Of a DNA stretch of 64,000 nucleotides, positions 4,449-48,442 are shown piece by piece. The translations under genes and the position numbers were made by a program. Each line of letters opens with the position of its first letter. The first letter of the stretch is position 1. Origin of the DNA: an uncultured Chloroflexia bacterium (GTDB lineage Bacteria; Chloroflexota; Limnocylindria; Limnocylindrales; CSP1-4). The notes below the pieces were generated by a model. It was given only the letters and a program-made list of their open reading frames with translations, made no database searches and was not told the origin of the DNA. The stretch is from positions 430,155-494,154 of the forward strand of contig CAWFBS010000008.1 in the NCBI GenBank assembly GCA_963814115.1. The letters are read 5' to 3'.

Positions 4449-5386
4449 GGCCGCCTGTCGGCCGGAGGAGCAGCGGAGGGCGAGAGGCCAAATGCGTCCC
4501 GCACCCGCTCCACGACCGTCTCCGGCCGGCGGATGAGCGCGAGCCCGTCCCGGGCCCAGGCCCGCCACGTCGCCGGCCGCAGGAACCACACCGGGTCCTG
4601 CCGCAGCCAGATGGTGGGAACGAGCGCCCACAGGTAGACGAGGTAGTCAAGCCTGGCCGGCCGGGGTATGGCGAACAGGACGGAGAGCTGGACGACCGTC
4701 AGGGGGAGCGTCGCGAGCGTCAGCAGGCCGGCAATCGCCAGGAAGAGCACGCCGTGCAGGCGCGCCCGCGGGGCGAGGATCCCGAGGAACACGGCCGGGA
4801 CCCACTTGATAGCGGTCGCCAGCGCCCAGAAGAGGCCCGCCGTCCGTGGACCAGTGAAGTGGGCTCCCCACAGCACGAGGACGAGGATCAGGTTGACGTT
4901 GCCGGTGTCGAGGTTCGCGAAGACCGGGAAGGCCAGCACGACCGCCACGGCCGCCGTCGCGAGCGGGCGGCGGCGGTACGCCCAGGCGACGGTCCAGAGG
5001 AGGAGCAGGATCGTCCCTCCCCGCCAGACGAACCAGGCGACGTCCCACGGCAGCAACGCCCACGGGGTGAATGCCGGGAGCAGCCATGGCGCATAGACGT
5101 ACGGCATGAACGGGCTTGCCGGATGGTACGGATCTCCGCCGTTGATCCAGATCCGGACGGCGGCCCAGTAGGCGCGGGCATCCACGCCCCCCAGCTCGCC
5201 CCGTGCGAACATCCCCGCCAGGCCGATACCCCCGGCGAGGGCAAGCAGGAAGATCGCCAGCAGTCGGCGTCGATCGTGGAGCCGGGAAACCTGGCGTCGA
5301 ATGGATCGCCGGTAGACGTTGCCCCGTCGCCGGGTCGGGCCGTCAACCAGCCCGGCCACGAGATCCCCCGCCCGTGCGGATGCCAT
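4445..5386 (-). CDS. Polytopic membrane protein, DUF2029 / GT87-like (putative mannosyltransferase family)
   Basis: Multi-TM Trp/Leu-rich protein with DUF2029-like motifs (GGDPY, FxYxPW, NLDTGNVNL). ATG at 5386; the upstream Arg-rich part of the ORF was rejected. Confidence 0.5.
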   Translation of the reverse strand: MASARAGDLVAGLVDGPTRRRGNVYRRSIRRQVSRLHDRRRLLAIFLLALAGGIGLAGMFARGELGGVDARAYWAAVRIWINGGDPYHPASPFMPYVYAPWLLPAFTPWALLPWDVAWFVWRGGTILLLLWTVAWAYRRRPLATAAVAVVLAFPVFANLDTGNVNLILVLVLWGAHFTGPRTAGLFWALATAIKWVPAVFLGILAPRARLHGVLFLAIAGLLTLATLPLTVVQLSVLFAIPRPARLDYLVYLWALVPTIWLRQDPVWFLRPATWRAWARDGLALIRRPETVVERVRDAFGLSPSAAPPADRRP

Positions 5387-5508
5387 GCGGGGGAGTATCG
5401 CATCGCGCCGAAACCCCGGCGCCGCCCACCGCTCCGAGGCCAAGGCTGGACCACCCTCGGGGGAAGCGGACGAAGGCCCGGCCCGTGGCTCCGATCTAGA
5501 CTGTCGCG

Positions 5509-6738
5509 GTGCCGACGGAACTGGCCGCGCTTCTCCCTGACCGCGACCTCGCCGCCCTGCGCGCGAGGATTGCCGCATCGCAGCCGAATTTGCTCACCGA
5601 CCTCGAGCGCCTCGTCAACCTGGACTCCGGCAGCTACACGCGCGACGGGGTGAACGAGGTCGCCGGCTGGGCGGCCGATCGCCTTGCCCGGCTGGGTGGC
5701 AAGGTGACCCGGCATGCCGACCCGGCCGGCCGGCTCGGCGATACGGTCGAGGCCGTCTTCGTGGGCGAACGGGGCGGTCCACGCGCCCTGTTGATCGGGC
5801 ATACGGACACCGTCTTCCCCGTCGGGACGGCCGCTGAGCGCCCGTTCCGGTTGGCGGGCGGCGTCGCGACCGGGCCCGGGGTGACCGACATGAAGGCCGG
5901 GCTGGTCACCCTGGTCTACGGGCTCGAGGCGGTGCTGGCCGCGGGCGGGCTCCCCTTCGAGCAGCTTACGGTCATCGCGAACCCGGACGAGGAGATCGGC
6001 TCTCCGGTCTCGACGGCCCACGTTCGGCGCGTCGCGGCCGACTGTGACGTGGCGTTCGTGCTCGAATGCGCTCGCGCGAATGGCGACATCGTCTCGGCGC
6101 GCAAGGGGACAGTGGACTACCAGGTGACGATCACGGGTCGCGCGTCTCACGCGGGAGTGGAGCCGGAGAAGGGGCGCAGCGCGATCCTCGAGGCGGCGCA
6201 CCAAGTGGTGGGCCTGCACGGGCTGACCGGTCGCTGGCCGGGCGTGACCTGCAACGTCGGTGTGATCTCGGGCGGGACGCGCCCCAACGTGGTGGCCGAC
6301 CAGGCCGTCCTCGAGGTCGACCTGCGGGCGGAGGACGGGGAGGCCATGGAGGCCGCCACCGCCGCGGTGCGCGAGCTCGCCGCCGCCCCGACGGTTCCGG
6401 GAGTCGTGGTCTCGGCCGTGGAGCGCCACCGGCACCCGCCGATGGAGAAGCTTGCGCGGTCCGCCCGGCTCGTGGAGCACGTCCTGGCGATTGCCGACCG
6501 GCTGGGCTTCGCCGTGCACGACGCCATGACCGGGGGTGCGTCGGACGCCAACACGACCGCCGCGATGGGGGTGCCGACGCTCGACGGCCTGGGCCCGATC
6601 GGCGGGCTGGACCACTCGCCCGACGAGTGGCTCGACGTGACGAGTATCGTCCCACGCACGACGCTCTTCGCGGCGCTGCTCGTCGCGGTCGGAAGGGACC
6701 GGCTGATCGCGGGCTGGCGGGTCGGCCCGATCCCCTGA
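5509..6738 (+). CDS. M20 family metallopeptidase (carboxypeptidase G2-like)
   Basis: GHTDTV...D(M)K metal-binding motifs and M20 dimerisation-domain signatures. 409 aa with a GTG start. Confidence 0.8.
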   Translation: MPTELAALLPDRDLAALRARIAASQPNLLTDLERLVNLDSGSYTRDGVNEVAGWAADRLARLGGKVTRHADPAGRLGDTVEAVFVGERGGPRALLIGHTDTVFPVGTAAERPFRLAGGVATGPGVTDMKAGLVTLVYGLEAVLAAGGLPFEQLTVIANPDEEIGSPVSTAHVRRVAADCDVAFVLECARANGDIVSARKGTVDYQVTITGRASHAGVEPEKGRSAILEAAHQVVGLHGLTGRWPGVTCNVGVISGGTRPNVVADQAVLEVDLRAEDGEAMEAATAAVRELAAAPTVPGVVVSAVERHRHPPMEKLARSARLVEHVLAIADRLGFAVHDAMTGGASDANTTAAMGVPTLDGLGPIGGLDHSPDEWLDVTSIVPRTTLFAALLVAVGRDRLIAGWRVGPIP

Positions 6739-6835
6739 CCGGCCCCGACGACCGGCGCGTCAGCCACGACTGGCGTGTCACCGACTGACGGACGGACGCC
6801 GCGGTCGCCGCGCGGAGACGACGGCCCCGGCGACC

Positions 6836-7168
6836 CTAACCCGCCCCAAGCGCCCGGACCGCGGCGGTCAGGACAACCGCGACGAGCAGACCCACGAAGA
6901 GGTTCCGGCGCCAGGCGACCAATGCGACACAGGCCACCACCGCGAGGACATCGATCCCGACGTGGATCGAGGGGCGGCCGCCCGCGCCTGTGACGAGCAG
7001 CGTCTGCGAGGCGGCGATCGCTCCGAGGACGGCCGGGCCCACCAACCGGAGATACTCGAGGGCGCGCGCCGGCAGCCGCTCGAACGCCGGCGCCAGCAAT
7101 GGCACAGCACGTGCCGGGTACGTGACCGCAGCCATGAGCAGTGCCAGGAGGACCAGCCCGCCGGTCAT
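6836..7168 (-). CDS. azlD: Branched-chain amino acid transporter AzlD
   Basis: 111-aa protein with 3-4 TM helices, immediately downstream of azlC. ATG at 7168. Confidence 0.7.
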   Translation of the reverse strand: MTGGLVLLALLMAAVTYPARAVPLLAPAFERLPARALEYLRLVGPAVLGAIAASQTLLVTGAGGRPSIHVGIDVLAVVACVALVAWRRNLFVGLLVAVVLTAAVRALGAG

Positions 7169-7178
7169 GCTGGTCCTG

Positions 7179-7910
7179 TCACGGCGCGATCCCGTCGTCG
7201 GACCTGCCGGGCCGGCTGAACGCGCCCGGCTCCGCCGGAAGCTCGTCCGGCTCCGGCACGTCCGGGTCGCGGCGCGGAACCAGCAGGCCGACGAACGGGC
7301 CGACGATCCCGCCCGCCAGGACGCCCGCTCGTGGGTCGAGCACCAGCCCGACGGCGAGGGCGATGCCGACCCCGGCGACGCCTGCCGCCACCTCCCGCCT
7401 GCCCGTGGCCAGTCCGACCGCGAGCCCGGCCATTGCGGCGGGGAAGACGACGTCCAGCCCGAGGATGCGCGGATCGGGAACCATCTGGCCGCCCAGCACG
7501 CCGACCAGCGTGGCGAGGTTCCACGGGATGAAGACGCCGCCGATCGCCGCCAGCCAGTATCCACGCCGGTCGGCGAAGCCGAGCCGCCGGAAGTGGACCA
7601 GGCTGAGCGCAAAGGCCTCGTCAGTCAGGACGTACGCCATGAGCGCCCGCTCGCGCCTCGGGCGGCCGCGCAGCCACGGGCTCAGGGCGGCGGCGTACAG
7701 GATGTGCCGGGCGTTCACGAGCGCCGTCAGGACCACGATCGCCGGCCAGCCGTAGCCGGCCCCGACCATTCCTGCGGCGGCGAACTGCGCCGCGCCCGCG
7801 AAGACGACCACGGAGAACACCACGGCTTCTAGCGGGGAGAAGCCGTTCGCCCGCGCGGTCAGTCCAAAGACCATGCCGAACCCGGCCGCGGAGGCGACGA
7901 TCCCGAGCAT
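7179..7910 (-). CDS. azlC: Branched-chain amino acid transporter permease AzlC
   Basis: About 243-aa polytopic membrane protein of AzlC family appearance. ATG at 7910, with an alternative upstream GTG possible. Followed by azlD. Confidence 0.7.
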   Translation of the reverse strand: MLGIVASAAGFGMVFGLTARANGFSPLEAVVFSVVVFAGAAQFAAAGMVGAGYGWPAIVVLTALVNARHILYAAALSPWLRGRPRRERALMAYVLTDEAFALSLVHFRRLGFADRRGYWLAAIGGVFIPWNLATLVGVLGGQMVPDPRILGLDVVFPAAMAGLAVGLATGRREVAAGVAGVGIALAVGLVLDPRAGVLAGGIVGPFVGLLVPRRDPDVPEPDELPAEPGAFSRPGRSDDGIAP

Positions 7911-8013
7911 GTCGACGACCAGGCGCCGCCGCGCGGCGCGGAGCACGACCGGGCCCGGATGGTCGCTCGGAACGGCGGTCACCGTCGTGGTGGTCGAGTT
8001 CGGTCGAAGCTGC

Positions 8014-27699: not shown

Positions 27700-28989
27700 A
27701 TGTTCGAACGTACCGCGCTGCCTGTCGGACCGCGCGTCATCACTGCGCGACTGCCGGGCGCCCGCTCGTTCACCGTGGAGGCACACGTCCTGGCCGGCTC
27801 GCGCCACGAAGCCCTCGGACAGGCGGGCTGCGCCCATTTCATGGAGCACCTGACCTTCAAGGGCACGCGGGCGTACCCGACGACGCGCGCCCTCTCGGAG
27901 GCTGTCGAGGGCCTGGGTGGAACCTTCAACGCATCGACGGACCGCGAATCGACCGTCTACTACGTGCGGGTCCCCGCGCGCCATGCGGCGACCGCCATGG
28001 AGGTGCTGGGCGAGCTCGTGGTCCGGCCGAACCTCGACGAGGCGGAGATAGAGAACGAGCGGGATGTCATCGTCGAGGAGATCCGCTCGTACCTCGACGA
28101 TCCCGCCGAGCACGTGAACGTGCTCTTTGACCTGGCGATGTTCGACGACACGCCGCTCGGGCGCGAGATCGCCGGTTCCGAGGAGAGCGTCCGGGCACTT
28201 CCCGCGACCGCCATCCACGAGTTCTGGCGGACGCACTACCGGCCGTCCAACGTTGTCGTCGCGGCGTCGGGCGACATGGGTCATGACCGGGTCGTTGAGC
28301 TCGCCGCGGCCGCCTTCGGAAGTGGAGGCGGCTCCAGTGCGGGGTTCCTTCCCGCGCCCCGGATCCCCGCCGGCACGCGCAGCCTGCGGGCCACCCGGCC
28401 GGCCACCCAGGCCCAGCTCGTGGTGGGCGTCCCGGCGCTCCCGCGTGATCACCCGGACCAATGGACGCTCTCGGTGCTCAACGCCGTGCTCGGTGACGGC
28501 ATGTCGAGCCGGCTGTTCCTGGGGGTCCGCGAGGAGCGCGGCCTCGCCTACGACGTGGGGAGCTCGACGGTCGAGTACAGCGACGCGGGGGTGCTCTCCG
28601 TCTATGCCGGCGTCGACCCGGGACGGATCAGGCCGACGATCGCGGCCGTGCTCGCCGAGCTGGCCCGGCTCCGGGACGAGGACGTGCCGGAGCCCGAGAT
28701 GGTGAAGGTCAAGGCCTACCTCGCCGGGCGCCTGGAGCTTCGCCTGGACGAGACGCGGTATCTCGCGTCCTGGATCGGCACCCAGGAAGCGCTCCACGAC
28801 AGGGTCCTCACCCCGGAGCAGGCCCTCGCCGCGATCGACGCCGTGACCGCCGCCGACGTTCGGCGTTTGGCCGGCAGGCTCTTCGTCGACGAGGCCCTTC
28901 GACTGGCTGTCGTCGCCCCCGCCGGGAAGGGCCGCGCGCTGGAGCCGGCGCTGCGGCTCCCGGCACGCAGCACGGTGTTCGCCACATGA
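27700..28989 (+). CDS. M16 family zinc peptidase (insulinase-like)
   Basis: Inverted zinc-binding motif HFMEHLTFKG (HxxEH) plus downstream E. 429 aa. Confidence 0.8.
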   Translation: MFERTALPVGPRVITARLPGARSFTVEAHVLAGSRHEALGQAGCAHFMEHLTFKGTRAYPTTRALSEAVEGLGGTFNASTDRESTVYYVRVPARHAATAMEVLGELVVRPNLDEAEIENERDVIVEEIRSYLDDPAEHVNVLFDLAMFDDTPLGREIAGSEESVRALPATAIHEFWRTHYRPSNVVVAASGDMGHDRVVELAAAAFGSGGGSSAGFLPAPRIPAGTRSLRATRPATQAQLVVGVPALPRDHPDQWTLSVLNAVLGDGMSSRLFLGVREERGLAYDVGSSTVEYSDAGVLSVYAGVDPGRIRPTIAAVLAELARLRDEDVPEPEMVKVKAYLAGRLELRLDETRYLASWIGTQEALHDRVLTPEQALAAIDAVTAADVRRLAGRLFVDEALRLAVVAPAGKGRALEPALRLPARSTVFAT

Positions 28990-29948
28990 CCGATCTGTCG
29001 GACGACGCCCCGGCGACCGCACCGGCGACCGCGCTCCGACTTGCGCGGCTCCACCTCCGCACGGGCATGGTGCGCCTGGCTCGGCTAGAGCTCGAACAGC
29101 TGGCAGGTGTGGCGGCGCTCGACTCCGAGGGGATCCTGGACCTTGCGGAGGCCCGCTGGCGCACCGGCGACCTGCGCGGCGCCGCCGAAGCGGCAGGCGC
29201 CTGGCTCGACGCTCCGCAGGTCGCGGATGCCGGGGCGACGGGCCGATCGCGTGCCATGGCGCACGCAATCGTCGCAGACGGCCTGACCGTTCGAGGCCGC
29301 CACGAGGATGCCGCCCTCCACGTGACGGCTGCACTTGACGCACTCGCGGAAGGTTCCGGCGGGACCGTGGAGGCGGATCTCGACGACCTGTTCGCAGGGA
29401 TCCCCGCCCGGTCCGACACGTGGCCGGCCTTCGGGCAGAGCGCGGTTCGGGGTGACGTCACCCTGGCGCCGGGCCGGAGGGCCGCGGGTCGCCCGGCCGG
29501 CCGTCCGGCAGAGCGCACGGCCGAGGCGCGTCCGGAGCGCGAGGAGGCCGAACCGACGGTCGTCCCGCCGATGGGCCCGACGGCCGACGACACCATCGCG
29601 GCTGCCACCGAGCGGCTCCGCGCGCGCGATGACACCGCCGCTGCGGTCCTTCTCGTCCTGGCGCTCCGCACGACGCCAACCCGGGCCGACGAGATCCTCC
29701 AGCGCGCCGACAATGCGCTCGCAGCCCGTCCCGGGGCGGCACTCCTCCTCGCGCGGGCGGAGGCGCTCCAAGCGCTCGGCCGGACGGAGGCTGCCGCGAT
29801 CGCCTACGCTGTGGCGGATGCGCAGGCCCGGCGGGGCGAGGGGGCGCCGACTCCGACACTCGGCCCCGGCGCGGCTGGTCCCATCGATGCGCCGCCGGCG
29901 GTTCCGAGCGCAGCCTCTCCTTCCGATCCCGAATGGAGCTCGCCATGA
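28986..29948 (+). CDS. Hypothetical Ala-rich protein (possibly TPR-like)
   Basis: ATGA overlap with the M16 gene stop; its stop overlaps the ndk start. Helical, Ala/Arg-rich, no recognisable motif. Confidence 0.4.
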   Translation: MTDLSDDAPATAPATALRLARLHLRTGMVRLARLELEQLAGVAALDSEGILDLAEARWRTGDLRGAAEAAGAWLDAPQVADAGATGRSRAMAHAIVADGLTVRGRHEDAALHVTAALDALAEGSGGTVEADLDDLFAGIPARSDTWPAFGQSAVRGDVTLAPGRRAAGRPAGRPAERTAEARPEREEAEPTVVPPMGPTADDTIAAATERLRARDDTAAAVLLVLALRTTPTRADEILQRADNALAARPGAALLLARAEALQALGRTEAAAIAYAVADAQARRGEGAPTPTLGPGAAGPIDAPPAVPSAASPSDPEWSSP

Positions 29949-30403
29949 TCGAACGCAGCCTCGTCCTCATCAAGCCGGACGGCGTCCAGCGCCTCCTGGT
30001 CGGCCGGGTCATCACCCGCTTCGAGGATCGCGGGCTGAAGCTCGTTGGGCTGAAGCTCGTCCACGTCACCCGCGAGCTCGCCGAGCGCCACTACGCGGTT
30101 CACCGCGACAAGCCGTTCTTTCCCGGGCTCGTCGCGTTCATCACCTCGAGCCCGCTTGTCGCCATGGCAGTCGAGGGCCCGAACGCGATCGGGGTCGTCC
30201 GCTCGATGGTCGGCGCGACCCGGCCGTGGGAGGCCGCCCCGGGCACGATCCGCGGCGATCTTGCGCTCGAAGTCGCGCAGAATCTCATCCACGCTTCGGA
30301 CGGGCCGGAGACCGCCGATGTCGAGCTGAAGCTCTGGTTCCCGGAGGGGACCCTCGCCTACTCCCGCGAGATCGATCGCTGGGCGCTCGCTCCCGGAGGC
30401 TGA
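29945..30403 (+). CDS. ndk: Nucleoside diphosphate kinase
   Basis: ERSLVLIKPDGVQR, NLIHASD and the active-site H region. ATGA overlap with the upstream gene. Confidence 0.9.
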   Translation: MIERSLVLIKPDGVQRLLVGRVITRFEDRGLKLVGLKLVHVTRELAERHYAVHRDKPFFPGLVAFITSSPLVAMAVEGPNAIGVVRSMVGATRPWEAAPGTIRGDLALEVAQNLIHASDGPETADVELKLWFPEGTLAYSREIDRWALAPGG

Positions 30404-31957
30404 TCAGCCGCCCGCGACCGAGGGGAGCGCAGCCAGCCCGGGCAGGCGGGCCGCCGCCTCGATCCCGAACGCTCCTGCGGCGACCAGGCAGGCCAGCCCC
30501 GCCAGCATGAGCACCGCGAAGGCGCGGAGCGGGACGCGGTTGATCTCCAGGGCCGGCCTGGCGCTCCGCCCGGCCACCGCCACGAGAGTCCGAACCCGGC
30601 CCACGAGCGCGCGTGGGCCTGCGACTCTGCCCGACGGCACCGTCCCACTCCGACTCGCGGTTTCGATCCCAGGCGCCGAGGGCGCCGATGGCGCCGGGAG
30701 GCGCGGCAGCTCTCCGAGTGCCCCGGCAACCGCGGCGGAGGGGCGACCGGCCCCCACCGCGAGCACCCGGAATATCGCCACCCCCGTACCGAGCGAGCCG
30801 ACATAGGCGAGGAGGAACGCGGGCCCTGCGGTGGCGGACTGGAGCACGTCGAGCCTGGTGTCCCAAGCCAGCAGGCCAGGCCAGCCAACGACTGCGACGA
30901 GGATCCCGGCAAGGGCGACGCCAAGGGCCGGCGCGCGTCGCAGCCAGCCGCTCGCGTCGCGGAGGCGCCCCGTGTCGAACGCTGCGCGGAACGCGATCGT
31001 CCAGCCGATGAGCGCCGTCCTGGTCACGGCGAAGACGAGGAGCCAGGAGCGCGCCGCATCGCGGGCGGCTGGATCGAGGGCCGCCAGGGCGAGCAGGGCG
31101 AGACCCGCGTCCGCGACGATGGTATAGGCGACGACGTGCTCCACCTCGTCCTGGACGAGGGCGGCGAGAGCGCCGAACAGGAGCGTCAGGAGCGCGAGCG
31201 CGACGAGCAGGCCGCGCTCCAGGCCCAGACCGGGTGCGTACGGCCCGAGCGCCGTGGGTGCCCAGCCCACGATGATCAGTCCCCAGGCGGCCGGGAGCCA
31301 TGCGCCGAGGACGGGAAATGCTGCGGATGGCGCCGCGTCGGACAGGCGCGACACACGGGCATGGAGCGGAATCGCCCCGAAACGATGCGCCACCACGAGC
31401 GCCATGCCGACAAGCGCGAGGGCAGCGGCTGCCGGCTCGGCGACCCGGCCGCTGCCCGTCGTCGCAGGCACGATCGCGGCGGCGATGACGCCGACGACCG
31501 TACTGGTCGCGGCGCCGCGCAGCTCGCGCATGAGCGCCCGGACCCGCGAGGGTGCAGCGGGGCTGGCGAGCGCGAGGGTGGCGGCGGCCCCCGTCGCGGC
31601 GCCGGCCGCGAGCAGTGCCGCCGGCGCGCCCGACAGACCAAGGGCCAGGCCAACGCCCGCCGCGCCCCCGAGCAGCACCCCCGGCGCCGACGGCTGCCAG
31701 GTCGCGAGCCGGCCGACGATCAGGACGAGAAGCCCGCCGCCAAGACACAGGCTGAGCACGAGGCGCAGGTGGGCGTCCCCGGCGAGTGCTTCGGCTCCGA
31801 GCTGGAGCGGATCGTCGGTGCGGATCGCGATCGCCGCGGCGAGGGCCACGATCACCGCCGCGAATCCGACCACGGTTCCCAGCTGTCGCCTGCTGCTGGC
31901 GAGCGTCGCGACGACGACCCCGGCCAGCGCGACGGCCGAGAACGCGAGGACGCTCAT
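30404..31957 (-). CDS. Polytopic membrane protein, distantly NuoN/MrpD (proton-conducting antiporter-like subunit) like
   Basis: About 517 aa, 12+ TM helices. Segment VEHVVAYTIVADAGLALLALAA...LLVFAVTRTALIGWTIAF resembles the conserved NuoN/ND2 core pattern (LAYSSIxHxG...). ATG at 31957; the upstream RG-rich part of the ORF was rejected. The family call is tentative. Confidence 0.45.
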   Translation of the reverse strand: MSVLAFSAVALAGVVVATLASSRRQLGTVVGFAAVIVALAAAIAIRTDDPLQLGAEALAGDAHLRLVLSLCLGGGLLVLIVGRLATWQPSAPGVLLGGAAGVGLALGLSGAPAALLAAGAATGAAATLALASPAAPSRVRALMRELRGAATSTVVGVIAAAIVPATTGSGRVAEPAAAALALVGMALVVAHRFGAIPLHARVSRLSDAAPSAAFPVLGAWLPAAWGLIIVGWAPTALGPYAPGLGLERGLLVALALLTLLFGALAALVQDEVEHVVAYTIVADAGLALLALAALDPAARDAARSWLLVFAVTRTALIGWTIAFRAAFDTGRLRDASGWLRRAPALGVALAGILVAVVGWPGLLAWDTRLDVLQSATAGPAFLLAYVGSLGTGVAIFRVLAVGAGRPSAAVAGALGELPRLPAPSAPSAPGIETASRSGTVPSGRVAGPRALVGRVRTLVAVAGRSARPALEINRVPLRAFAVLMLAGLACLVAAGAFGIEAAARLPGLAALPSVAGG

Positions 31958-32595
31958 CGGGGCTCGGCGCCGGATCGGCTCGTGGCTGCCCGGCCCGCGA
32001 GCGCGCCATCCGGGATCGCGGTGCCGGCGGTCGCTGCCACGGCGCCCCGGATCAGCGCCGACGACGACGCGGCGAGCACCACGAGGGCGATCCCGGCCGC
32101 GATCCCCGTCAACGGGTCGGGCGTGCCGGCCAGCGCCTCCGCGACCAGGAAGGCGCCGTCGAGCAGAACGATGAGCGCCGCGCCGAGCCGGAACACGTCG
32201 CGCGTGACCGCGATCGGCCCGACCGCCACCACGACGGCGGCGAGGCCCGCCGCCAGCGCCGCATCGGGGCCGCCGCGGGGCAGCGACACGGCTGTCGCCC
32301 CGAGTCCCACGGCGAAACCCGCAGCTGCTGCGGCCAGCGCCGCGAGCGTGCCCAGCGGCGGCACGAGAGGCTCCGCCACGCGACGTGCCGCGGTGAACAT
32401 GAGGAACGCGGCCAGGATCCCGGCCGCCGCGCCGAAGGCGAGTGACAGGGGCTGGGGCAACGGGTCCGCCACGAACGGCGTGATGGCCAGCATGCCGGCG
32501 AGGCCAAGGGAGGCGATCCTGGGGTCGCGCGCCCCCGTCGCGACCGCCGCCCCGATGGCGGCGAGGGCGCCGGCGGCGACCAGGAGCGGCGTCAC
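31954..32595 (-). CDS. Hydrophobic membrane protein (213 aa), unknown function
   Basis: GTG start forming a GTGA overlap with the lepB stop. Its stop overlaps the ATG of the next membrane protein. Multi-TM, Ala/Leu/Gly-rich. Confidence 0.4.
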   Translation of the reverse strand: MTPLLVAAGALAAIGAAVATGARDPRIASLGLAGMLAITPFVADPLPQPLSLAFGAAAGILAAFLMFTAARRVAEPLVPPLGTLAALAAAAAGFAVGLGATAVSLPRGGPDAALAAGLAAVVVAVGPIAVTRDVFRLGAALIVLLDGAFLVAEALAGTPDPLTGIAAGIALVVLAASSSALIRGAVAATAGTAIPDGALAGRAATSRSGAEPR

Positions 32596-33197
32596 GGAAC
32601 GGCGGGGCTCGGACTCGCGACGGCGTTGCCGACGGGCGCGGGGTACGTGGGCGTTTGCAGGATTCCGAACGTCGAGAGCGGCCAGTAGCGCAGCCAGGCA
32701 CGCCCGATGACGTTGCTGATCGCGATCGTGCCGAAGGACCGGGAATCCGCCGACGCTTCGCGATGATCGCCCATCACGAACAGCTGGCCGCCCGGGACGA
32801 TCCATTGCGCCGGCTCCTGGGCCGCGGTCGTGGGCTGTCCCTCGTAGGTGTACGGCTCGTCGAGCTTCGTCCCATTGATCCAGACAGCCCCGTCCTTGAC
32901 CTCGATCGTGTCGCCCGGCAGCCCGATGACCCGCTTGATGAACGGCGTGTTCTCGGGTCCCTCTGACCAGCCGGCAGGAGGCTGAAAGACCACGATGTCA
33001 CCGCGGCTGTAGGGGTCGAAGCGCGGCGTCAGCTTGTCGACCAGGACGTACTGATCGGGCTGCAGCGTGTTCTCCATCGACATCTGCTCGACGCGGTACG
33101 GCTGGGCGACGAACGTCTGGATGACGAAGAAGATGATGAGGGTGAGGACGAGCGTCTCGACGATCTCGAAGAGACACCCAAGGGGGCGTCTGGTCAC
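32592..33197 (-). CDS. lepB: Signal peptidase I
   Basis: TM anchor, then catalytic motifs (box with S: MENTL; GDHREASADSR; VIGRAW). Start taken at GTG 33197; an upstream ATG at 33392 is possible. Confidence 0.8.
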   Translation of the reverse strand: MTRRPLGCLFEIVETLVLTLIIFFVIQTFVAQPYRVEQMSMENTLQPDQYVLVDKLTPRFDPYSRGDIVVFQPPAGWSEGPENTPFIKRVIGLPGDTIEVKDGAVWINGTKLDEPYTYEGQPTTAAQEPAQWIVPGGQLFVMGDHREASADSRSFGTIAISNVIGRAWLRYWPLSTFGILQTPTYPAPVGNAVASPSPAVP

Positions 33198-33386
33198 AAG
33201 TCCGGCAGTATAGGGGCTGGCGTGGGGCAACGCCCCGGGGCCGGACGGCGCCCCGGAGAATCGGAGGATGAACCCGGCGCGAGACCACCGGCCGGCGACC
33301 CGCGCGCTGGTGCGCCTTGCCCGACGCAGGGCGCGGCTTGGACCGTTTCGGGCGCCCCGTTCACCCGGGGATGAGGGCCGTCCGGA

Positions 33387-33442
33387 CTGCATATTCCGGG
33401 CCGCTATGCAGTTTGACCCTCGCGTGGACCGGAGGCTATCCT
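33387..33442 (+). promoter_or_regulatory. 7-bp perfect inverted repeat (CTGCATA-N11-TATGCAG) abutting a candidate promoter TTGACC-N18-TATCCT upstream of hppA
   Basis: Read directly. Palindrome at 33387-33411, -35 at 33413-33418, -10-like at 33437-33442. About 140 nt upstream of the hppA GTG. Confidence 0.35.
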
Positions 33443-33581
33443 TCGCGAGGCCCGCCCGCGCGATCTCATTGGACCAGCAGGGTGGGGCCCGCCCAGGCGA
33501 CCCAAGGTGTTCCTCGTCCCCGGCGCGACGGACGCGCTCGAGCGGGCGTACGTGCCCTGACAGGGAGGTCTCGCACCAGCC

Positions 33582-48356: not shown

Positions 48357-48442
48357 GGAGAGGTGCCGGAGCGGTCTATCGGAGCGGTCTTGAAAACCGC
48401 CGGGTGCAAGCCCCGTGGGTTCGAATCCCACCCTCTCCGCCA
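48357..48442 (+). tRNA. tRNA-Ser (anticodon UGA), class II with long variable arm, CCA encoded
   Basis: Manual fold. Acceptor GGAGAGG/CCTCTCC, 3-bp D-stem, anticodon stem GCGGT/ACCGC with loop CTTGAAA (anticodon TGA), long variable arm, T-arm GTGGG-TTCGAAT-CCCAC, discriminator G, CCA. Confidence 0.85.

Follow-up and report, generated by a model that had tools for sequence, protein, structure and literature searches.

We report here on a three-gene block within a 64-kb stretch of DNA from an uncultured Chloroflexia bacterium (contig CAWFBS010000008.1, positions 430,155 to 494,154; hereafter the window, with positions counted from its first nucleotide), in which the signal peptidase I gene lepB is followed on the minus strand by genes for a 213-amino acid (aa) and a 517-aa membrane protein, referred to below as the small and the large protein. 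Consecutive genes overlap at both internal junctions, and the stop codon of the last gene directly abuts that of the convergent ndk gene (29933–30403, plus strand) (Table 1). These coordinates and junctions are exactly those claimed in the first-pass annotation of the window, which had described an antiporter-like pair coupled to the signal peptidase in an arrangement that it did not recognise. The lepB product scores above cut-off with both Pfam Peptidase_S26 (PF10502, 168 bits) and TIGR02227 (155.5 bits), the motifs carrying the catalytic Ser and Lys can be read in it (SM..., KRVIGLPGD and GDHRxxSxDSR), and the GTG start at 33197 gives a protein of 201 aa, the length also seen in its orthologues. 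No promoter- or terminator-like sites were found inside the three-gene block by a promoter and terminator scan, nor any RNA elements in the operon by an Rfam scan.

Table 1. Features of the lepB–small–large operon in window positions. The three junctions were read directly from the nucleotides; residue numbers are those of the 517-aa protein.
Feature	Position	Strand	Remarks
lepB, signal peptidase I	32592..33197	-	First operon gene; 201 aa plus stop; GTG 33197-33195, TGA 32594-32592
GTGA overlap	32592..32595	-	lepB stop and start of 213-aa gene
213-aa gene	31954..32595	-	7-TM lysine-free membrane protein; GTG 32595-32593, TGA 31956-31954; probable tandem MrpC/NuoK-like partner
ATGA overlap	31954..31957	-	Stop of 213-aa gene and start of 517-aa gene
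517-aa gene	30404..31957	-	Predicted divergent antiporter-like (MrpD/NuoN-class) protein, 14 TM, lysine-free; ATG 31957-31955, TGA 30406-30404
Ala120	31598..31600	-	At canonical TM5 Glu; HMMER to NdhB (6hum_B) and hhalign to canonical set (invariant E138)
Arg192 (CGT)	31382..31384	-	At canonical TM7 Lys; aligned to 8e9g_N, 6cfw_H, E. coli NuoN K217 and canonical-set invariant K220
PF00361-matched region, residues 248-391	30785..31216	-	Profile positions 147-291 of 294, i.e. second half only
Arg313 (AGG)	31019..31021	-	At canonical TM11 Lys; hhalign
Arg368 (AGG)	30854..30856	-	At canonical TM12 Lys; HMMER and hhalign
TM13–TM14 loop, ~residues 404-473	30539..30748	-	Variable, Arg/Pro-rich; low model confidence
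TGATCA	30401..30406	.	ndk (+) stop 30401-30403 abutting 517-aa gene (-) stop; zero spacer

The possibility that the two membrane proteins are out-of-frame artefacts, which the first-pass annotation had itself raised, is ruled out by codon-position GC content, conservation and substitution rates. GC at third codon positions (GC3) is 0.87 for the large protein and 0.92 for the small protein in the claimed frames, compared with only 0.61 for an overlapping minus-strand open reading frame (ORF) at 30285–32009, while two alternative ORFs on the plus strand combine a high GC3 (0.81–0.85) with an implausibly high GC at second codon positions (0.69–0.83). The length and frame of both proteins are kept down to ~35–40% identity in more than 40 other genomes. 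Pairwise ratios of non-synonymous to synonymous substitution rates (dN/dS), calculated for the window genes against four orthologous loci, were 0.23–0.28 for the large and 0.34–0.36 for the small protein, and 0.09–0.19, 0.10–0.16 and 0.08–0.11 for lepB, ndk and the H+-pyrophosphatase (H+-PPase) gene, respectively. As the values for the pair are well below one but above those of the neighbouring genes, the selection acting on it is purifying yet relaxed.

We note that the public databases contain fused gene calls of 330–940 aa, including a 545-aa 'LepB' (locus L004 in our set, 6367–8004), others at L008 and L017, and the proteins P0245, P0267, P0293 and P0171. Their Arg-rich and out-of-frame middle sections point to frameshifts in the assemblies rather than to genuine fusions, and small–large or lepB–small fusions were rejected as proof of a complex.

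Family, fold and charged residues of the large protein

The large protein matches PF00361 (Proton_antipo_M) with a score of 36.4 bits against the gathering score of 21.5 (E = 4.4e-9). In contrast, the NCBIfam models for NuoN, MrpD and NuoM gave 17–50 bits against cut-offs of 264–791: the best score was obtained with the NuoN model TIGR01770 (49.7 bits, cut-off 332.6), the remaining NuoN models gave 24–45 bits (cut-offs 408–626), and the MrpD models NF005818 and NF009306 gave 36.3 and 34.6 bits (cut-offs 586 and 542). Judged by these profile scores, the protein falls in none of the named NuoN, MrpD or NuoM families. A profile built from 25 members of its own family matched mycobacterial NuoN (8e9g_N), Pyrococcus MbhH and fungal ND2 in the PDB with E-values of 4e-9 to 4e-7, and hhalign to an alignment that combined six MrpD sequences with NuoN and NuoM of E. 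coli (the canonical set) gave a probability of 97% (E = 7.8e-11) over 393 columns, covering residues 3–405.

The AlphaFold2 model of the large protein (predicted local distance difference test, pLDDT, 79.6; predicted template modelling score, pTM, 0.76) found its top Foldseek matches among MrpD, NuoM, NuoN and NuoL chains, with template modelling scores of 0.67–0.70 over ~440 columns and with the MrpD chains 9a6h_B, 6z16_D and 7qru_D among them. The number of transmembrane (TM) helices in the model is the canonical 14, with TM7 broken at residues 192–200 and TM12 at ~358, and the prediction thus shows the complete MrpD/NuoN antiporter-like fold, including both broken helices; in the PF00361 superfamily this fold comprises two inverted five-helix repeats. 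Taking profiles and model together, we regard the large protein as a genuine but very divergent antiporter-like protein, and in this respect the NuoN/MrpD-like character proposed for it earlier is borne out.

The alignment to the canonical proteins stops at residue 405, at the loop between TM13 and TM14, which is poorly predicted in the model (pLDDT < 50 for residues 417–449) and is followed by the last helix at residues 474–496. This loop differs greatly in length across the family, whose proteins are between 470 and 700 aa long and match in two stretches on either side of it. Because of the 14-helix count and the positive-inside pattern, the loop is predicted to lie on the cytoplasmic side.

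The earlier statement that no other nuo or mrp genes are present holds for antiporter-like genes, as a family-profile search found no second antiporter-like ORF in the window, while the other nuo and mrp subunit types were not searched for window-wide. No nuo or mrp genes were seen near the relatives in the annotated ±8 kb neighbourhoods that we examined.

The lysine and glutamate residues that form the relay in Mrp and complex I are defined in the literature (for example eLife 2020;9:e59407), and we checked them against the canonical alignment made in this analysis; for E. coli NuoN we take them to be K217, K247, K395 and E133. Residue frequencies are given here for a family alignment of 109 sequences (the window protein, seven close relatives and 101 cluster representatives), and the mapping of residues agrees between HMMER alignments (to NuoN, MbhH and NdhB) and those produced by hhalign. 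In the column of the TM5 Glu, where the window protein has Ala120, at least 105 of the 109 sequences have A, G, V, I, S or L, and no acidic residue is found among the six commonest. The positions of the TM7 and TM12 Lys are taken by Arg192 and Arg368 (Arg in 105 and 106 sequences, respectively), while the TM8 Lys (invariant K251) aligns to a gap beside Pro222 in a helix without conserved charge. In the superfamily, His also occurs at the TM8 position and Glu at that of TM12. The TM11 column is more mixed, with Lys in 64 and Arg in 24 sequences, and the window protein has Arg313 here. Other near-invariant positions are His199 (106/109), Tyr278 (109/109), Arg397 (108/109) and Arg147, and of the canonical features the protein keeps His199 (in the 'PxH' of TM7), Asp270 and Tyr278. 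The replacement of the TM5 Glu and of the TM7, TM8 and TM12 Lys agrees with the earlier suggestion that this could be a degenerate or repurposed proton channel.

There are no lysines in either the small or the large protein of the window, and the median for family members is a single lysine. The codons of Arg313 and Arg368 are both AGG, one step from AAG. GC pressure can be ruled out as the cause of the missing lysines: the H+-PPase encoded next door contains 19 Lys, and the MrpD proteins of 72%-GC actinobacteria (Streptomyces and Tsukamurella) retain E138, K220 and K251. The Lys-to-Arg changes are therefore not an effect of base composition.

The small protein

No Pfam or NCBIfam model (including PF00420) matched the small protein, any of the 28 members of its alignment or eight half-sequences. 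The AlphaFold2 model (pLDDT 76.7) shows seven TM helices together with an amphipathic helix at the C-terminus, and a Foldseek search with it gave no significant match. When a profile of the small-protein family was compared with 177,635 PDB sequences, the top match was Bacillus pseudofirmus MrpC (7qru_C, E = 0.0037) and the third was Anoxybacillus MrpC, with the N-terminal part of the protein corresponding to MrpC helix 3 and the DPLP motif and the C-terminal part to MrpC helices 1–2 and the loop Arg. Each half of the protein (residues 1–80 and 105–195) aligns collinearly with full-length MrpC, giving hhalign scores of 20–23 (P = 0.003–0.01) compared with 8–14 for the controls, which were MrpB, MrpE, MrpF, E. 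coli NuoJ and NuoK, and reversed MrpC. The diverse MrpC sequences used for the profile were drawn from plasmid records; when Priestia MrpC was used as the query, the proteins listed were all from Bacillaceae and more than 80% identical, and they did not broaden the profile. No hhalign signal was obtained with the small-protein profile against the single E. coli NuoK and NuoJ sequences.

By the positive-inside pattern, both halves are oriented like NuoK and helix 4 connects them. The polar residues typical of TM2 and TM3 in the MrpC/NuoK family, which are the invariant Q70 and T75 in MrpC and glutamates in NuoK, are not conserved, and the DPLP motif and the loop Arg are all that is shared. We conclude that the small protein probably consists of two MrpC/NuoK-like three-helix units plus a linker helix (3+1+3 = 7 TM), although with evidence this weak the assignment should be seen as probable rather than established. 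The claim that both proteins form an antiporter-like pair does not survive for the small protein, which is instead a seven-TM protein with weak yet specific similarity to MrpC and NuoK. It should be noted that MrpC proteins themselves vary in size, as those of Streptomyces clavuligerus and Tsukamurella (L052, 2300–2875, and L053, 2297–2887) are 191–196 aa long with a long charged C-terminal tail, and others are ~110–125 aa.

Distribution and gene neighbourhood

A HMMER scan of 1.84 billion cluster representatives (50% identity clusters) returned 202 matches with E-values below 1e-30 and 347 below 1e-10, and on the basis of sequence this is a compact and distinct protein family. Almost all members with a named source organism are Limnocylindrales-type Chloroflexota. 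Relatives are labelled in the databases as 'NADH-quinone oxidoreductase subunit N', 'proton-conducting transporter membrane subunit' or 'hypothetical protein', and no published description of the family was found in our literature searches. Forty loci were recovered from species-representative genomes, and these belong to metagenome-assembled genomes labelled Chloroflexota, Chloroflexia or Candidatus Limnocylindrales, with two exceptions: one is labelled Anaerolineaceae and the other is a 2.7-kb contig binned as Methylomirabilota. The latter (L041, DATHGS010000230.1, binned as 'Candidatus Methylomirabilota') carries a member with 45% identity, the only match outside the Chloroflexota, for which wrong binning is the most likely explanation.

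All sufficiently long loci of the species-representative set have the same layout, in which the H+-PPase gene is divergent from lepB, small and large, and the genes that converge on them are ndk and those for a TPR-like protein and an M16 peptidase. The sequence CCGTGAC at the lepB/small junction is nearly universal in ~40 related loci, and the pair shows 37–55% identity where the H+-PPase and ndk products show ~75–87% and lepB ~60–80%. The four-nucleotide small/large overlap is also kept in the distant loci L045, L048, L057 and L059, where the large proteins are 35–40% identical to that of the window. The order lepB–small–large is retained in the distant loci L045, L058 and L059, whereas in L048 and L057 the H+-PPase gene is followed directly by small and large with no lepB. 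The stable unit is therefore the coupled pair, whereas lepB often precedes it but can be dispensed with, so the link to lepB made in the first-pass annotation stands as an overlap conserved in most loci and fails in these two distant lineages. The arrangement that it could not place is not unique to the window but recurs throughout, and is fixed across, one class-level Chloroflexota lineage. The Pfam search, structural comparison with NuoN and survey of other genomes that it had suggested have returned an antiporter-family match, a matching fold and a pair that recurs within this lineage.

We also made several observations on the surroundings of the operon. In L045, a gene for a 685-aa Big_5/PD40-domain protein (4643–6700) is inserted between the H+-PPase gene and lepB and breaks the otherwise constant divergent arrangement. 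In the window, lepB is separated from the H+-PPase gene by a divergent intergenic region of 384 nucleotides (33198–33581), where the promoter and terminator scan made its sole match, a sigma-70-like site at 33413–33442 that is pointed at the H+-PPase gene; the promoter scan found no recognisable promoter for the lepB operon in this region. At the other end, the convergent operons meet at the abutting stops (30401–30406) with no terminator-like structure detected by the terminator scan, and transcripts of both strands would have to overlap or end inside the opposite gene. The convergent operon (27700–30403, plus strand) also appears to be translationally coupled, as the M16 peptidase gene (27700–28989) overlaps a gene for a 320-aa protein (28986–29948) by ATGA, and the last 16 nucleotides of the latter gene are shared with the start of ndk (29933). 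The 320-aa protein is lysine-free and Ala/Arg-rich and has no Pfam match in the window, though the orthologue in the distant L048 weakly matches TPR. Across the whole window, the Rfam scan matched nothing at gathering score except a tRNA gene at 48357–48439 (plus strand).

Interpretation and comparison with known systems

We read the locus as a lineage-specific operon that combines lepB with a two-gene remnant of an Mrp- or complex I-type membrane module, and consider the chances of this being correct to be about even. With the small protein taken as a tandem MrpC-like protein, gene order and translational coupling reproduce those of mrpC–mrpD, and the small and large proteins may form a ~1:1 membrane complex that reuses the MrpC–MrpD (NuoK–NuoN) interface. 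A lysine-to-lysine proton relay of the kind found in Mrp and complex I would be impossible here because arginine poorly releases and takes up protons, while the strict conservation of mid-membrane Arg, His and Asp positions suggests that the polar axis is still in use. Our best guess is that the pair is a stand-alone, non-redox-driven module which conducts ions or senses charge, with a gated leak, or the secondary transport of an ion other than or besides H+, as candidate roles. Fixed positive charges would favour anions, or a water-mediated over a side-chain-mediated passage of protons, and in most members the synthesis of the pair would be coordinated with that of signal peptidase I. A more specific proposal, possible though doubtful in our view, is a hitherto unrecognised class of two-subunit machine in which an MrpC-like and an MrpD-like protein have turned the antiporter fold from a lysine proton relay to an arginine-lined path. 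In Limnocylindrales-type Chloroflexota, such a machine could transport an anion or another substrate that is not a proton, sense voltage, or work with signal peptidase I as its ion-coupled partner.

A number of points weigh against reading the pair as the remnant of such a module. The similarity to MrpC is weak, with hhalign probabilities of only 4–10%, no single sequence matching PF00420 and E. coli NuoK remaining silent. The loss of four canonical charges together with the relaxed selection (dN/dS two to three times that of the neighbours) is also expected of a purely structural or decaying protein, and the apparent fusions of the small and large proteins in the databases are frameshift artefacts.

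The pair could instead serve signal peptidase I, or protein export, as a dedicated accessory, acting as a membrane scaffold or ion-coupled helper physically associated with LepB, and we think this unlikely. It draws on the conservation of the CCGTGAC overlap between lepB and the small gene in ~40 species representatives, an overlap that the distant L045, L058 and L059 also have, and on the M16 peptidase–TPR–ndk operon converging on the pair, which makes the locus rich in protein-processing genes. However, L048 and L057 keep the coupled pair beside the H+-PPase gene without lepB, all of the flanking genes are syntenic across the clade and the linkage may be mere inherited gene order, and we know of no signal peptidase I that needs such a partner.

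It is quite unlikely that the pair is a decaying relic without any ion-related function, retained as membrane filler or by chance linkage. While the lost canonical charges, the two- to threefold higher dN/dS, the lower identity than in neighbouring genes (37–55% against 60–85%) and the Ala-rich, low-complexity composition would all suit a relic, dN/dS remains well below one, more than 200 clusters preserve length and frame, Arg147, Arg192, His199, Tyr278, Arg368 and Arg397 are near-invariant, and the translational coupling is conserved.

We see a slim chance that the pair is functionally tied to the divergently encoded H+-PPase, for instance as the route by which pumped ions return or by which the gradient made by this pump is regulated. 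Wherever the neighbourhood is long enough, the H+-PPase gene is found upstream in divergent orientation, also in the two lineages without lepB, but a Big_5 gene intervenes in L045, little can be concluded from divergent neighbours within a syntenic block that is frozen, and no H+-PPase partnership of this kind is known to us. Finally, that the large protein is the true NuoN (or MrpD) of the organism, displaced from its operon and still working in complex I or Mrp, is highly improbable despite NuoN providing the best NCBIfam and PDB sequence matches and the name given to relatives by automatic annotation, as the protein scores 20–50 bits against family cut-offs of 264–791, has the TM5 Glu and the TM7, TM8 and TM12 Lys all replaced, possesses a conserved partner gene of its own, and is accompanied by no other antiporter-like gene in the window and no nuo or mrp gene in the neighbourhoods examined.

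Proton translocation in complex I, Mrp and the membrane-bound hydrogenases is carried out by antiporter-like subunits, whose mechanism is still debated. If the pair is the remnant of such a module, its long retention in minimal form provides a natural 'mutant' with which the antiporter fold could be tested without lysine chemistry. We also note that the 'NADH-quinone oxidoreductase subunit N' labels are misleading for this MrpD-like family, which matters when respiration is inferred from the genomes of abundant uncultivated Chloroflexota from soil and freshwater.

Gene order parallels that of Mrp (also Mnh or Pha; PDB 6z16 and 7qru), as in the mrp operons we examined (plasmid-record loci) mrpC lies directly upstream of mrpD and often overlaps it. 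Like Mrp, the window has a small, probably NuoK-like gene directly upstream of and overlapping an antiporter-like gene, the large protein is predicted to have the MrpD fold, and the best PDB sequence match of the small protein is MrpC. It differs from Mrp in having no mrpA, B, E, F or G genes near the pair, in a small subunit which appears to be doubled, with seven TM helices compared with three in MrpC, in having Ala, Arg, a gap and Arg in place of the MrpD TM5 Glu and TM7, TM8 and TM12 Lys, and in scoring far under the MrpD family cut-offs.

In comparison with NuoN/ND2 of complex I (with NuoK), the large protein has its best sequence-profile matches here (TIGR01770 and 8e9g_N), shares the 14-TM fold with broken TM7 and TM12 in the predicted model, and keeps the PxH, QxD and AY(S/T) motifs. 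In contrast to complex I, no further nuo genes are found nearby, the score is 49.7 bits against the 332.6 required, and E. coli K217, K247, K395 and E133 are not conserved.

DabB of the DAB CO2-uptake system is a PF00361 protein from outside complex I and Mrp, in which the helices of one dedicated partner complete the channel (bioRxiv 10.64898/2026.03.13.711513). The window pair resembles this system in having a PF00361 protein that would work with a single partner. However, DabB keeps NuoL-type proton-transfer residues, whereas the relay lysines are lost from the window protein, and its partner DabA is a large, cytoplasmic and carbonic anhydrase-like protein (PF10070), whereas the window partner is small and entirely within the membrane; no PF10070 product was present in the neighbourhoods examined. 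When compared with these systems, the minimal, lysine-free mrpC–mrpD-like module confined to one Chloroflexota lineage is a variant for which we found no earlier description.

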